Position numbers and translations under genes: made by a program. 64,000 bases of DNA. It comes from Chloroflexota bacterium. GTDB taxonomy: Bacteria > Chloroflexota > Anaerolineae > CG2-30-64-16. The DNA lies in contig JAPLHB010000188.1 in NCBI GenBank assembly GCA_026389845.1, positions 51,026-115,025 of the forward strand. Reading direction: 5' to 3'. Below the pieces are notes generated by a model that had not been told where the DNA came from, did no database searches, and saw nothing but the letters and a program-made list of their open reading frames with translations. Positions 51,743 through 58,950 of the stretch are shown in pieces (position 1 is the first letter of the stretch; every line of letters starts with the position of its first letter).

Positions 51743-51910
51743 CTACGAAAGCTTCAGCGGCCCCAAGAAACTGCTCAACGGATTCAGCGAATCGCTGCCA
51801 GGCGCGCTGTCCTGTGCGCGCGCTTCCAACGATCGCTCCAGCACAATGGCTGGCTCCTCCCACGGCTGGCGAGACATCTGCTTCTCCGCGACTGTAGTCT
51901 GGTGTTCCAT
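51743..51910 (-). CDS. putative RiPP precursor peptide 2 (55 aa)
   Basis: SD caggagg; MEHQTTVAEKQMSRQPWEEPAIVLERSLEARAQDSAPGSDSLNPLSSFLGPLKLS; paralog of 55141-55317. Confidence 0.75.
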   Translation of the reverse strand: MEHQTTVAEKQMSRQPWEEPAIVLERSLEARAQDSAPGSDSLNPLSSFLGPLKLS

Positions 51911-52100
51911 AGGTGTATTCCTCCTGTTAGCAGGAATGACGGTTGATGAAGATTACGAATGGTGTTACAGGCGGGAGCTATCCTGCTGGCCGTTCACGAG
52001 TTCGTGGGAGATAACAACGAATCGAAGGATCGAGCGAATCGCCCCGCGACGATTCGTTTCATCCTCCGATTCGTTGTTCTATGCGCTGCTGCCGCGCCCG

Positions 52101-54824
52101 TTACTGCGCTACCGCCGGCAGCCAATACCAGCCAACCGGCATCGTGACGCTGACCGTCTCCAGCGCCTCTTCGCTCCCGTCCAGCCCTACGGCGGCCACG
52201 AGATAGCGATAGGTGGCTCCGCGCGCCACGCCGGCGTCGTTCCAGCGATAGCCGTAGCCCGACGGGGAGCCAGGTGCCTGGCTGGGGATCATGGCCGCGT
52301 TGAGCCGCGTCCAGTCGCCGCCTGCGGCATCGGCCCGGTAGACGTGATAACCCTGGCTGGATAGCTCGCTGGTCGTCTCCCACGCCACGACGATGCGGCC
52401 GCCCACGGCCGTCGCGTTCAGGCTGGAGAGCGGTGCGGCAAGGGGCGTGTCGAAGGCGGTGAAGTCGGAGAAGGTGGTTTGGGCGCCGGTGCTGAACTGG
52501 TTGCCGCTGACCGCGCCCAGCGTCTCAAAGGGATACGCGCCAGTCCATTTCTTGCCGCTCATCGCATCAGCGCCGTTCTTGTCGGCGTCCACAAAGGTAA
52601 GCGTGGCGTTATAGCCGGTGATGCTGACGACGGCTACGCCGCTGCCCGGCCAGTAACGGTCAATGTAACTGGTGGCGCTGCCGGGCTTGGAGGGGTGAGC
52701 TACGGTGGTCATGCTCAGCTTTGTGGGCGAGCTGAGCGTCCAGTAACGGTCAATGTAACTGGTGGCGCCGCCGGGCTTGTACGGGTGAACTGCATTGGTC
52801 ACGTTGAGGCAGGCCATGCCGCTGCCCCCGGTCACATTCAGGTCCATCGGCGAGTACTCGGCCGTGCCGGTGATGTCGCCGATGGGAAAGGTGAAGCTGC
52901 CCGTGGTCGCGTAGGTCTTGCACAGCATGCCCGCGCTGTCGTCAGTCACCACCATGGCCGAGGCCGACGGTGTGCCGCCGACGGATGCGGAGGAACTCAG
53001 GGTCAGAGTGTTGGCGCCCAGGATCAGCAAGCCGTTGGTGAGGCGCAGGCGTTGGCTGACGGTCTGCGTCTCGGCCAGCCGTACGGCAGAGTGGCTTGGA
53101 GAATCTGGATGAATCCGCGGAATTTCGTTGTTGACAGTCTGCGCCGCGGCCAGCGATAAGCTGCTGCGCTTGTCAATGGCCAGGTAAGCCCAGTCGGTGG
53201 CGCTGTTGATCGTCTGCACTGAGAATAGGGGGCCATTGAACACCACCTCGCGATCATTGTTGTTGAACGAGCCCGCCAAGTCGAGGGTCCAGTCGCCGCC
53301 GACGTTCAGGTCGCCGCCGCTGGCATCGCCCAGGGACAACGCACCATTGATCGTTACATCGCCGCCCACCGTCAGCGGATTGTTGAGTCCGGGAGCGCCG
53401 TAATCCATGTAGAGCGCCGAACCTGAATCAATCGTCAGACTGCCTGCCATGCTGCGCGCTGCCGTGCTGCCGTTTGGGTAGTTCAGGGTGGTGTTGTTGC
53501 TGATCTGCACGTTGGCGGGATAGCCAGCGCCGCTGGTCGCGCTCCATTCCAAGCCGCGACCGTAGGTGGTGTTGGAATTATACTTCAGCGTGGAGGATGC
53601 CCCATAGATCGGTGGGTTCGTGTTGACATACCCACCCGAGTTGATCTGAAGCGTGCCATTGACGGTAGAAATCGAAGAATCGAAATTGACACCCCCGGCG
53701 ATGGTTACGTGGTTGAAGGTGGTAGCGTTGCCTGAGACTGTGCCGGAACCGGCGAAGCTAACGGTGCCGTCGTTGGCCGTAAAGGCTCCGTTGTTCAGAA
53801 ACATTGACCCTGACTTGAGCGTCAGCGTGCGGGCAGTACTGGCTTCGCTCGTAAGCGTCTTGGATGAATTGATGACTAGATGTCTGACGGCGGCGTCCTT
53901 GTCAAGAGTGACATCATGGGCAATGGTGATCGTCTGATCGTCTGCGGGTACTTCTCCACACGTCCATGTGCCAGCCGTATTCCAATTGCCATCAGCAGCC
54001 GTAGCCCAAGAGGATGCCACTGTGTAAGAGTAGTTGGAGCCGCCATTGTTGTTCAGGTTGATCGTATAGTAGTTTGCGTCGCTTCCAGAAATAGAAGATA
54101 CATCACCTGAAGTGAAGAGGTAATACCACACCGTATTTTCAGCGGTGTTGGTACCACTCGGAATGGAGGCGCTGTAGGAGGTTCCTGAACCCGTCAACTT
54201 GACGACGGTCGAGGTGCTGAAGTTGTCTGTCGAGTAGCGAAGGTATACCGCCTGCCCTGTTGACAAAGAACCGTCCAGCGTGGCATCGACAGTCACCGCT
54301 TCGCCGGGGCAAACCGTGCCCGAAGGCGTGCGCGAGGTCGAGCTAACGCTGCGCACAGTGTCCTGGATCTCGAAGACGATGACTTTCGAGGTGCCAGGCG
54401 CGCCCGAACCCGCCGTCTTGAACACATATTTGTATGATGTGCTGCCCACATTGACGTAGTAGGCCTTGCTTCCACCCCAGCTTTGCAATCCGGTAGATGT
54501 TGCCAACGAGAGTTGGATATCACTTCCGCCGTTCGGTCCGTACTTGGTGCTGCCGGTCGAATTCCAGAAGCGGAAGTATCTGTTGCCGGTAGCCGAGTTG
54601 CTGGTCTCGAACTTGTAGCTTCCCGATCCCGATGGGGTTTCTGTCATAGCCGCGCCACTGTTCCAGCCAGCCTGTCCACTCCAGCCGTCACCACTCTCAA
54701 ATTGGTGGGGTATCTGATCGCCTGTGCCTGCATACACTGGCGCGACCGCGGACAGCCCGGCCAAGACCAGCCCCAAGATCAGCACCGCCATCGCCACGAA
54801 GTTCAAAAAACGAGTCTGTTTCAT
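52101..54824 (-). CDS. large secreted beta-rich (G/S/T/N) protein with C-terminal PLA..L / WYWLPAV domain
   Basis: signal peptide MKQTRF..VYA; SD ggagg; beta-helix-like repeats; C-terminal WETTSE..GYHVYR. Confidence 0.8.
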   Translation of the reverse strand: MKQTRFLNFVAMAVLILGLVLAGLSAVAPVYAGTGDQIPHQFESGDGWSGQAGWNSGAAMTETPSGSGSYKFETSNSATGNRYFRFWNSTGSTKYGPNGGSDIQLSLATSTGLQSWGGSKAYYVNVGSTSYKYVFKTAGSGAPGTSKVIVFEIQDTVRSVSSTSRTPSGTVCPGEAVTVDATLDGSLSTGQAVYLRYSTDNFSTSTVVKLTGSGTSYSASIPSGTNTAENTVWYYLFTSGDVSSISGSDANYYTINLNNNGGSNYSYTVASSWATAADGNWNTAGTWTCGEVPADDQTITIAHDVTLDKDAAVRHLVINSSKTLTSEASTARTLTLKSGSMFLNNGAFTANDGTVSFAGSGTVSGNATTFNHVTIAGGVNFDSSISTVNGTLQINSGGYVNTNPPIYGASSTLKYNSNTTYGRGLEWSATSGAGYPANVQISNNTTLNYPNGSTAARSMAGSLTIDSGSALYMDYGAPGLNNPLTVGGDVTINGALSLGDASGGDLNVGGDWTLDLAGSFNNNDREVVFNGPLFSVQTINSATDWAYLAIDKRSSLSLAAAQTVNNEIPRIHPDSPSHSAVRLAETQTVSQRLRLTNGLLILGANTLTLSSSASVGGTPSASAMVVTDDSAGMLCKTYATTGSFTFPIGDITGTAEYSPMDLNVTGGSGMACLNVTNAVHPYKPGGATSYIDRYWTLSSPTKLSMTTVAHPSKPGSATSYIDRYWPGSGVAVVSITGYNATLTFVDADKNGADAMSGKKWTGAYPFETLGAVSGNQFSTGAQTTFSDFTAFDTPLAAPLSSLNATAVGGRIVVAWETTSELSSQGYHVYRADAAGGDWTRLNAAMIPSQAPGSPSGYGYRWNDAGVARGATYRYLVAAVGLDGSEEALETVSVTMPVGWYWLPAVAQ

Positions 54825-58371: not shown

Positions 58372-58509
58372 CGCGCTTCACTACCTATCTCATCCGCCGT
58401 TGTAAATTGGTCGAGAAACGCGACGAAGGCCAGGAAATCGTACTGCGCAGACTCAAACGGAATCACGTTCAGGAACCCTCTCCCCGCTGATCGTTCACCG
58501 GTCCCCATT

Positions 58510-58950
58510 TTACCAGACTCCAGCCTTTGCAGCAAGGAGCTTTCGCCATCCGTAGCGCAAGACCCGCAACACGTGATGCCGCGCCAGCCAAAAGGGGATC
58601 GCGGCGCGGGCGTCGGGACCGGGCCAGCAGCGGCGACCGTCGGAGTCGGCTGCGACCACTACGCCCAACACCTGGTTCGGCGCCAGCGACCGGTCGGGGG
58701 CCAGCCGGCCGTCCCCCTGGGTGATCCACCGCCCGGCCGCCCGGCGCACCAGCCTGTGGACGACCAGCGCGTCGCCGTCGGCGAAGACCACCAAGCTGCC
58801 GAGGGGCACGGCCGGCGGCAGTGGGGCGATCTCCACCTCGCAATCGGGGGGCAGCGTGGGGGTCATGCTCGTCCCGCGCAGACGCCAGCGGAAACGGCCC
58901 TCGTGGGCGAGGGCATCGCGCAGAAGCGGAAGCCAGTCGCTGATGAACAT
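58510..58950 (-). CDS. S24/S26 family signal-peptidase-like protein
   Basis: GTSMTPTL (Ser), LVVHRL (His), TQGD. Confidence 0.82.
   Translation of the reverse strand: MFISDWLPLLRDALAHEGRFRWRLRGTSMTPTLPPDCEVEIAPLPPAVPLGSLVVFADGDALVVHRLVRRAAGRWITQGDGRLAPDRSLAPNQVLGVVVAADSDGRRCWPGPDARAAIPFWLARHHVLRVLRYGWRKLLAAKAGVW

Follow-up and report, generated by a model that had tools for sequence, protein, structure and literature searches.

Among the described gene clusters closest to the locus reported here are those of phosphorylated lasso peptides, which belong to the peptides that are made on the ribosome and modified after translation (RiPPs). Lasso protein B1 recognises a leader motif YxxPxL at positions -17 to -12 and speeds the phosphorylation of an internal Ser, as described in PMC10368454, while PMC9266682 states that the substrate of the lasso kinases is the linear precursor and that PsmN adds a hexose to the phosphate. 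The window analysed here is a stretch of 64,000 nt of contig JAPLHB010000188.1, in which all positions given below are counted. It carries two genes for short peptides, pep1 and pep2, and a set of genes for a radical S-adenosylmethionine (rSAM)/SPASM enzyme, a stand-alone PqqD-family protein, an HprK-like kinase and an S24-like peptidase. Judging from the conservation of the peptides and of their gene neighbourhoods, pep1 and pep2 are probably members of a family of ribosomally made precursors that feed a maturation cassette conserved among Anaerolineae-type genomes of Chloroflexota, a group of environmental, filamentous bacteria. The mechanism of this cassette we infer. The system would then be an rSAM RiPP dependent on a RiPP recognition element (RRE) that reuses the leader/B1/kinase/nucleotidyltransferase module of the lasso type and has unusual peptidase and envelope links. 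The features at the centre of this proposal are:

55141-55317, minus strand: pep1, a predicted 58-aa precursor peptide with the leader ...SRQPWEEPAIVLERSLEVRGQ and the core end GFLGPLSTSNGGPCT (open reading frame, family alignments A1/A3, purifying selection)
51743-51910, minus strand: pep2, a 55-aa paralogue of pep1 with the end ...SFLGPLKLS, directly 5' of the C25 peptidase gene
55326-55331, minus strand: ribosome-binding site AGGAGG of pep1 (from sequence)
51920-51925, minus strand: ribosome-binding site AGGAGG of pep2 (from sequence)
55417-56583, minus strand: rSAM/SPASM enzyme, 388 aa, lacking a fused RRE domain (Pfam Radical_SAM 8.7e-22, SPASM 7e-07)
57044-57364, minus strand: stand-alone PqqD-family protein, putative RRE/leader chaperone (Pfam PqqD 3.4e-14)
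57454-58371, minus strand: HprK/PEPCK-fold P-loop kinase-like protein, 305 aa (sub-cut-off NCBIfam matches, fold model)
58510-59010, minus strand: S24/S26-fold peptidase of the SipW/Sec11 (Ser-His) type, 166 aa (family alignment A5, fold model)

Both short open reading frames (ORFs) are found at the coordinates, on the strand and with the lengths (58 and 55 aa) that a first-pass annotation of the window had given them, and the Shine-Dalgarno sites it had claimed are the AGGAGG hexamers, which lie 8-9 nt before either ATG. The placement of pep1 was likewise read correctly: the gene starts 99 nt past the stop of the rSAM/SPASM gene, which is itself preceded on the minus strand by the S24-like, HprK-like and PqqD genes, in this order. 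In BLASTP, pep1 and pep2 agree at 35 of 55 positions (64% identity, E=1e-23), and the strings SRQPWEEPAIVLERSLE and NPL..FLGPL, by which the two had been likened to each other, are indeed common to both.

In the own genome of the window, which comprises 6.84 Mb on 228 contigs and is 93.9% complete, the peptide occurs in seven copies, two in the window and the others on contigs C68, C78, C19, C58 and C183. Hereof the C68 and C78 copies are near-identical, the C58 copy has a TAG at the codon of the invariant Trp (an intact orthologue, P0017, exists elsewhere), and the C183 copy is divergent and without Cys. Searching 5.8 billion proteins through a word index yielded 15 homologs. Profile searching of 1.84 billion representatives gave 130 matches with E<=1e-3, of which 46 reach E<=1e-10, 123 of the 130 being no longer than 130 aa, and about 120 distinct small-protein clusters in metagenomes have the architecture described below in common. 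No NCBIfam or Pfam model matches the two peptides. Within a sample of 401 genomes of the phylum, profile A1 hits three, the third being G052 at 6e-4, and the broader profile A3 gave, beyond convincing hits in G000 and G338, just marginal E values of 0.001-0.01 that we took as chance. One match, assigned to Proteobacteria (L025), was discarded as spurious, since it sits within a long methyltransferase-like ORF of ~500 aa.

Nei-Gojobori counts for 12 coding sequences reveal how these genes evolve. Between loci L022 and L024 there are 19 synonymous and 2 non-synonymous differences (omega 0.03), and between L021 and L022 23.7 and 4.3 (omega 0.04); the remaining pairs with finite synonymous divergence range from 0.11 to 0.60, this divergence being saturated in many, and pep1 against pep2 gives 0.59. 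By this substitution pattern, pep1 and pep2 are members of a real translated family under purifying selection. The two ORFs are short and unannotated, and RNA contigs lie over neither of them (a missing cover that is no evidence), all of which could suit chance open frames or untranslated conserved DNA. Such an origin has practically no probability left, given that omega values of 0.03-0.04 over 19-24 synonymous differences already contradict it and that AGGAGG precedes both genes and the same architecture recurs in ~120 clusters.

This architecture was quantified over 130 members of at most 75 aa, with leader positions anchored on the Trp (n=129). The family leader reads [RK][KQ]xWxxPxI(V)LERxLx[VA]xAQ, and its most conserved feature is W-x-x-P-x-[IVLMF], present in 129 of the 130 members. 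Relative to the Trp, R/K occupies -3 in 121 sequences, P +3 in all 129, I +5 in 110, E +8 in 126, R +9 in 118 and L +11 in 127; towards the leader end, V/A is found at +13 in 121, A/G/T at +15 in 129 and Q at +16 in 115. In the clade of pep1 and pep2 the aromatic residue is Trp, in divergent copies it is Tyr. None of the 130 members has a hydrophobic run of ten or more residues, so that the leader is no signal peptide of the Sec type. It is joined by a variable, Pro/Gly-rich spacer to a core that ends in GFLGPLx[ST]SGxxGxC. The Cys next to the C-terminus of pep1, which had been pointed out before, is conserved: 97 of 130 members have a Cys within the last eight residues, mostly with 0-1 residue behind it, and the spacing from GPL to Cys is 7-12 with a mode of 9. 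In pep2 this Cys is lacking, since the peptide stops directly after FLGPLKLS and is therefore without the C-terminal x-S-G-x-x-G-x-C tail of pep1 and most family members.

Two places for the leader junction suggest themselves. Cleavage between A and Q would fit the -3/-1 rule of signal peptidases, the residues being [VA]-x-A, and cleavage after the Q would give the W position -17, the P -14 and the I -12, which is the register of the lasso YxxPxL motif. The earlier proposal that WEEPAI is the recognition site of the peptides is thus borne out in so far as the motif is conserved in 129 of 130 members and can be read in this register. One may therefore ask whether the locus is itself a phosphorylated lasso-peptide system of the paeninodin/pseudomycoidin kind, with which it has a PqqD/B1-like protein, an HprK-type kinase and the nucleotidyltransferase NTP_transf_5 in common. 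In the Atlas search the nearest clusters are unnamed, and those with a name reach 0.77-0.81 (DUF5972, Subterisin), which makes them no more than leads. The lasso family 'Subterisin' among them, at 0.77-0.80, speaks for a lasso kinship, if only at such scores. However, the B2 protease (PF13471) has no match in the own genome, at 93.9% completeness, Asn-synthase homologs (PF00733) occur on contig C210 only, where there is no peptide copy, and neither lasso cyclase nor B2 is seen in any of the related loci examined. Moreover, 21 sequences among the 129 with the motif contain neither Asp nor Glu behind the leader and hence no acceptor for a macrolactam, which in lasso peptides is closed by an Asp/Glu at core position 7-9. 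The absence of a lasso cyclase, already remarked in the first-pass annotation, consequently holds near all peptide copies, with B2 missing from the own genome as well. On these grounds we rejected a lasso identity, which is highly improbable.

The rSAM/SPASM enzyme belongs to none of the NCBIfam families at their cut-offs. Full-length matches below cut-off are to MftC (9.8e-36) and StsB (1.4e-35), and its best sequence match in the PDB is PqqE (1.8e-14), with SkfB at 1.3e-11. The CX3CX2C motif (Cys54/58/61) is kept in 17 of 17 aligned relatives and the seven SPASM Cys in 16-17 of them; at least 212 homologs are found at E<=1e-60, all with generic or automatic names. For the PqqD protein the sub-threshold NCBIfam matches are ScmD (top), the PqqD of GeoRSP, lasso B1 and the PqqD of PQQ. 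Two general marks of an RRE-dependent rSAM RiPP, namely a conserved precursor by the maturase genes and CX3CX2C together with a full set of SPASM Cys, are present.

The same matches could indicate the precursor of a redox cofactor, such as PqqA for PQQ or MftA for mycofactocin, on which PqqD and the rSAM enzyme would perform the first step. Next to the PqqE match of 1.8e-14, the full-length mycofactocin maturase match of 9.8e-36 and the stand-alone PqqD, conserved residues near the C-terminus, as known from MftA, count in its favour. These scores are, however, far below the family cut-offs, one genome contains seven precursor copies with differing cores, and the cores of related cassettes are quite different again. 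The loci are devoid of PqqB/C/F-like and MftD/E/F-like genes, and in place of oxidoreductases they have polysaccharide and surface-protein genes as neighbours. With seven variable copies and no cofactor-processing genes, a cofactor role is unlikely, and we hold the chance of it to be slim.

Related loci were gathered by a genome-contig scan, a metagenome-contig scan and a search of the phylum, with genes called by tblastn. Leaving out L025, there are 13 true loci outside the own genome (L011, L019-L024, L032-L037). In eight of these (L011, L021-L024, L032, L034, L037) the peptide has an orthologue of the rSAM gene (64-73% identity) directly upstream, and in L020 the orthologue is 7 kb upstream. 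PqqD is present in seven of 13, or eight when L070, an extension of L011, is counted. Collinearity extends to the HprK-like gene in L021, L022, L023 (there with stops), L024 and genome G338, and PqqD and the HprK-like gene together are collinear where the contigs extend far enough. NTP_transf_5 is often present in these close loci and also lies 430 nt upstream of the C19 copy of the own genome. The complete order in L021 is sugar transferase, glycosyltransferase, NTP_transf_5 (4.5e-49), HprK-like, PqqD, rSAM, peptide, C25 (1.3e-75) and Wzz/BY-kinase. The latter two genes have counterparts in the window:

47882-51337, minus strand: secreted protein of the Peptidase C25 (gingipain) family (Pfam Peptidase_C25 1.5e-77 over the full length; synteny)
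59079-60737, minus strand: Wzz-type chain-length determinant fused to a BY-kinase (NCBIfam eps_fam 8.9e-50; Pfam Wzz, ParA-type)

By tblastn and phmmer, the Wzz/BY-kinase gene is adjacent to the cassette in the window, L021, L022, L023, L033, L036 and G338. The Peptidase_C25 gene directly follows the peptide in ten of 13 loci, the exceptions being L011, where a tail-domain protein comes next, and L035 and L036, where the contig ends. In the own genome, C183 (60420-61864) carries a second, divergent pair of HprK-like and PqqD genes without an rSAM gene, after which comes a peptide that has a Y-x-x-P-x-V leader and no Cys; this is the sole peptide copy with HprK and PqqD that is without rSAM. 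Downstream of this peptide there is a gene for a 779-aa protein and then DnaJ/Hsp70-like genes. In L034 (~4900-5900), a 338-aa frame that looks like an arginine methyltransferase by eye ends ~100 nt upstream of PqqD, the usual place of the kinase-like gene.

Homologous small ORFs near orthologous PqqD/rSAM genes, the linkage that the first-pass annotation had named as its check, are therefore present in other genomes and in metagenomes; their absence, which it had set as grounds for giving up the idea, is not what we observe. As read from gene order, the peptide genes travel with PqqD, rSAM/SPASM and the HprK/PEPCK-fold kinase-like protein, whereas the companions NTP_transf_5, the SipW/Sec11-type S24/S26 peptidase and the secreted C25 peptidase are lineage-dependent. 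The earlier account of the cassette is supported in part and had overlooked the peptidase of the C25 family, NTP_transf_5 and the fact that the locus is surrounded by genes for exopolysaccharide and surface proteins.

Given that C25 is the tightest neighbour, in 10 of 13 loci, the peptides might instead be partners of this peptidase, for instance its inhibitor, its chaperone or an adaptor for sorting, and the rSAM cassette might have another target, a view that also draws on L033 and L036, where Wzz/BY-kinase and not rSAM is directly upstream of the peptide. It is, however, rather implausible: the leader bears the motif that PqqD-type domains bind, rSAM stands directly upstream in 8 of 13 loci, the peptide copies on C68, C78, C19 and C183 have no C25, and divergent cassettes keep a leader and a Cys peptide beside rSAM.

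Turning to the further enzymes of the proposed cassette, the kinase-like protein matches NCBIfam families far below cut-off (HprK_rel_A 5.4e-07, ScmC 5.7e-05, HprK_rel_B 9.3e-05). Among 40 members of its family, such sub-cut-off matches are to ScmC in 39, HprK_rel_A in 37 and HprK_rel_B in 37, the best being ScmC at E=3.6e-09. An AlphaFold2 model with a mean predicted local distance difference test (pLDDT) score of 91.7 retrieves PEPCK (E=7e-9) and HPr kinase/phosphatase (E=6e-5) in Foldseek, so that, according to the model, the protein has the HprK/PEPCK fold. Invariant residues are H124, G139, S141, G144, K145 (Walker A), D161 and E162, of which H124, Lys145 and D161-E162 presumably correspond to the catalytic set of HprK. 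At least 218 homologs are found at E<=1e-5, all with the precomputed label PF27840.1, which might already describe the family, and with names that are only generic.

The S24-like protein of the window is marginal when taken alone (Peptidase_S24 E=0.019; range E=0.019-0.07). In family alignment A5, S48, H85, D100 and D106 are invariant in eight of eight sequences, and we take them to be the equivalents of the catalytic residues of Sec11. Six of the eight members match sigpep_I_arch (best 2.6e-15), five SipW, five the nickel superoxide dismutase (Ni-SOD) maturation protease and all eight Peptidase_S24, while Foldseek relates the model (pLDDT 79.1) to SipA (4n31), the C-terminal domains of LexA and lambda repressor, SpsB and human SEC11. 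By alignment and model, the family is one of SipW/Sec11-type peptidases (clan SF, S26B), for which the Ni-SOD maturation protease provides a precedent. With jackhmmer, members are found in seven of 27 loci, all seven in the more distant cassettes.

These distant cassettes widen the picture. The HprK-like gene occurs in 23 of the 401 sampled genomes of the phylum, and the 14 extended loci around it contain PqqD in nine, rSAM in nine, C25 in three and the S24-like gene in seven (four by phmmer, all seven by jackhmmer). Gene orders are NTP5-HprK-PqqD-rSAM-(small ORF)-C25-S24 in G291, HprK-PqqD-rSAM-(small ORF) in G284, NTP5-HprK-PqqD-rSAM-S24 in G122, rSAM-HprK-PqqD-S24 in G052, PqqD-rSAM-HprK-S24 in G015 and G126, PqqD-rSAM-HprK-S24-C25 in G048 and HprK-S24-C25 in G002. 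In L076 (G061:C36, 5658-8953), the kinase-like profile hits the same long frame as the rSAM query, and a second rSAM-like frame comes after it, maybe a fused or tandem arrangement. Small ORFs with Y-x-x-P-x-[IM] leaders and unrelated, Cys-bearing cores are found in G291, in G284 and on a separate contig of G052, the leader type RKPYxxPxIVY being common to G291 and G052. A search of the distant cassettes with a strict regular expression yielded the G284 ORF only, to which a hidden Markov model of the leader alone added only the ORF on G052:C89; with these two methods no precursor was found in G122, G015, G126, G048 and G002. Such a constant leader in front of a changing core would be the usual RiPP pattern, and as the changing cores bear a Cys, it points to the Cys as the target of the rSAM enzyme.

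The Cys could alternatively be linked in the manner of lanthipeptides. Here, the kinase would phosphorylate Ser/Thr of GPLx[ST]SG, elimination of the phosphate to a dehydro residue and addition of the Cys to this residue would follow, as class III/IV lanthipeptide synthetases phosphorylate and then eliminate, and the rSAM enzyme would be left with an epimerisation or a C-C link. Every core type beside the cassettes has both Ser/Thr and Cys, and most cassettes have the kinase, which would be compatible with such a route. On the other hand, a lyase or cyclase domain was seen in none of the loci, L020 and L034 have rSAM, PqqD and a Cys peptide with no kinase in the available DNA there, and C183, with the kinase and without rSAM, has a Cys-less peptide. 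We therefore regard lanthipeptide-style linkage as unlikely.

Preferring rSAM chemistry on the Cys, we propose the following course of maturation. PqqD as the recognition element would bind the leader [RK][KQ]xW-x-x-P-x-I and present the core GFLGPLx[ST]SGxxGxC to the rSAM/SPASM enzyme, which would most likely form a thioether between the conserved Cys close to the C-terminus and a residue that precedes it by 7-12 positions, in the FLGPLx[ST]S stretch. The kinase would phosphorylate a conserved Ser/Thr of the core, aided by the RRE, like the HprK-type kinases PadeK, PsmK and BsfK of lasso clusters, and NTP_transf_5, where present, may extend the phosphate as PsmN does. Finally, the leader would be cut at [VA]-x-A|Q or just after the Q, by the S24/S26 enzyme where there is one and otherwise by C25. 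pep2 may be a substrate of the kinase only or a decaying duplicate.

The surroundings of the two genes bear on the history of the locus and on the possible site of action of the product. Three further features are relevant:

52101-54824, minus strand: secreted protein of 907 aa between pep1 and pep2, with an FN3-like domain and the tail ...PVGWYWLPAVAQ; weak G8 match only
51466-51630, minus strand: orphan copy of the 3' end of the 907-aa gene, 165 nt, 93% identical to 52102-52266 (tblastn 88.9% over 54 aa)
56624-57000, no strand assigned: unusually long spacer between PqqD and rSAM made of dispersed repeat elements (blastn against the own genome, up to 228 overlapping copies)

The orphan 165-nt direct repeat just downstream of pep2 marks a scar of duplication, recombination or insertion. 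The 907-aa gene and another peptide copy have entered the stretch from pep1 to C25, so that pep2 now stands in the ancestral 'peptide then C25' place and pep1 in that of 'rSAM then peptide'. The spacer repeats have 100-228 overlapping copies across the genome, with pieces recurring on the same contig, and the gap between PqqD and rSAM is only ~100-130 nt in L021 and L022. In a three-frame view of 46900-48400, the C25 gene changes frame ~70 codons before its end, and the lost frame runs into a domain near-identical to the end of the next gene (47066-47836), with the sequence downstream alike. This direct repeat of a few hundred bases at the 3' end of C25 may reflect a real deletion or an assembly collapse.

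Extra copies of the peptide in the own genome lie 140-240 nt past genes for large secreted proteins that end in an FN3-like domain and a short hydrophobic tail. At least 12 large secreted proteins have this C-terminal arrangement (...GWYWLPAVAQ, ...WLWLPAVIQ, ...LWLPTVVR) with no membrane helix after it. Two are in the window, at 52101-52493 (the tail of the 907-aa protein) and 36023-36390 (the end of a 2791-aa DUF11 protein), and others are on the own contigs C213, C19, C68, C78, C58, C197, C39, C104, C154 and C210. The FN3-like tail domain is covered by no Pfam or NCBIfam model. It occurs in 40 of the 401 phylum genomes, namely in 16 of 23 kinase-positive vs 24 of 378 other genomes by a hand count uncontrolled for relatedness, and in G375 and G210 it abuts the kinase-like gene and is followed by a membrane helix. 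Domain and hydrophobic tail may together be a sorting tag. The exopolysaccharide and surface-protein setting suggests a role in the cell envelope or matrix, so that an antibiotic-type product should not be assumed. By analogy with PorU, the sortase of type IX secretion, one may speculate that the product is a thioether-closed, phosphorylated or phosphoglycosylated cell-envelope peptide and that C25 clips the tails of surface proteins (...W-L-W-L-P-x-V-x-R/Q) and joins them to the peptide or, through it, to exopolysaccharide; we consider this a long shot. If true, Chloroflexota would possess a peptide-based system for sorting or anchoring proteins that is built from RiPP enzymes.

Expression was assessed with four metatranscriptome runs of one study, in which DNA carry-over is possible. 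Exact contigs of the RNA libraries (151-265 nt) match the rSAM gene and the 907-aa gene, as well as 54904-55054 in the gap that separates the start of the 907-aa gene from the stop of pep1. Partial matches at 56652-56692 (41 nt) and 57428-57824 diverge onward and stem from dispersed repeats. Elsewhere in the window (61491-62159, minus strand), a 222-aa ORF has a third-position GC of 0.49 vs ~0.8 in its neighbours and is maybe foreign DNA.

Several observations weigh against the proposed maturation scheme. The rSAM enzyme is equally distant from MftC, sactisynthases, PqqE and enzymes of heme pathways, so that homology picks no reaction, and 31 of 130 members, pep2 included, have no Cys and end shortly past GPL-[ST]-[ST]. 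The HprK-like gene is not directly upstream of PqqD in L020 and L034. jackhmmer finds the S24-like peptidase in none of the 13 close loci; accordingly, the earlier claim that an S26-like enzyme removes the leader is supported as regards the SipW/Sec11 family, its recurrence and the [VA]-x-A site, and falls short for the close loci. No exporter gene was recognised in the cassette, though C25 is secreted, and no RNA contig lies on pep1 or pep2 in the four runs, a missing cover that says nothing about expression. Together with the apparent frameshift at the 3' end of C25, the 377-nt repeat block between PqqD and rSAM means that the copy in the window may be impaired or mis-assembled. Finally, the predicted complex of PqqD and the peptide scored 0.49 vs 0.01 for the best control, which is weak support; RRE-leader complexes have already been solved, so that likeness to them may drive the score. 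The partner had a pLDDT of 54 or more, and 90% or more of the contacts agreed between runs. Of 80 solved complexes 58 attained the mark applied, as did two of 110 mismatched pairs, and passes at or below 0.60 comprise seven of the 80 solved complexes and both passing mismatches.

Our literature search, with its poor coverage of subscription journals, returned no description of a PqqD/rSAM/HprK-like/C25 cassette or of the peptides; the RRE-Finder paper (PMC7470986) and PMC12710340 contain zero mentions of kinase, HPr, Chloroflex, C25 or nucleotidyltransferase. For the widespread, uncharacterised set of PqqD, rSAM/SPASM and HprK-like genes, to which NTP_transf_5, the S26 peptidase and the C25 peptidase may or may not be added, a precursor family with a readable leader, junction and core is now supplied, and with an identifiable precursor the chemistry of the cassette becomes directly testable by co-expression. 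The family may also guide the search for precursors in related SynChlorMet and HPr-rel-A cassettes. In addition, exopolysaccharide genes, a gingipain-family peptidase and tail-tagged proteins hint at a structural or sorting role, which would be unusual for such enzymes.

In comparison with known systems, SynChlorMet (TIGR04248-04251) has the same three protein types, namely a ScmC-related HprK-like protein, a PqqD relative and rSAM/SPASM. It differs in having two rSAM genes instead of one, and the present cassette adds the S24-like peptidase, C25, NTP_transf_5 and a precursor. The resemblance noted in the first-pass annotation thus extends to the protein types, whereas all scores are far below the cut-offs (22.6 vs 125 bits for ScmC, 32.2 vs 100 for ScmD, 95 vs 400 for ScmE and 65.9 vs 400 for ScmF), and membership was rejected. 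We know of no precursor for SynChlorMet, and a literature search on the name gave nothing relevant. Membership in HPr-rel-A (TIGR04352, 04353, 04355) was likewise rejected at 29 vs 200, 18.7 vs 35 and 21.7 vs 200 bits, as was membership in GeoRSP on the curated cut-offs.

The maturases of sactipeptides and ranthipeptides (AlbA, SkfB, StsB and CrpC of PMC13692751) share with the present system an rSAM/SPASM enzyme with two auxiliary-cluster Cys sets, a Cys peptide and an RRE. There, the RRE is an N-terminal domain of the enzyme, whereas here it is separate, the peptides mostly have one Cys, the thioether is putative and genes for a kinase, a nucleotidyltransferase and peptidases are added. The PQQ (PqqA/D/E) and mycofactocin (MftA/B/C) pathways have in common with it a discrete PqqD-type chaperone, an rSAM/SPASM enzyme and a short precursor; they differ in that the present loci are without cofactor-processing genes and have multi-copy, variable precursors and envelope/polysaccharide neighbours. 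With SipW/Sec11 and the Ni-SOD maturation protease, the S24-like family shares the invariant Ser, His and two Asp, and the [VA]-x-A junction would fit the -3/-1 rule, while the present peptide lacks the hydrophobic signal-peptide core of SipW/Sec11 substrates.

By analogy, the phosphorylated lasso clusters (PadeA/B1/K, PsmK/PsmN, BsfA/B1/K) correspond to the cassette in the stand-alone PqqD-type RRE, the HprK-type kinase, NTP_transf_5 and a leader with an aromatic-x-x-P-x-hydrophobic motif. In the present family the conserved -2 residue is Ala, compared to Thr in lasso leaders, and the aromatic residue of the present clade is Trp. Where the lasso clusters have B2 and an Asn-synthetase-like cyclase, the present cassette has rSAM/SPASM instead, and it would thus link a recognition module of the lasso type to radical-SAM chemistry, a modular reuse across RiPP classes.

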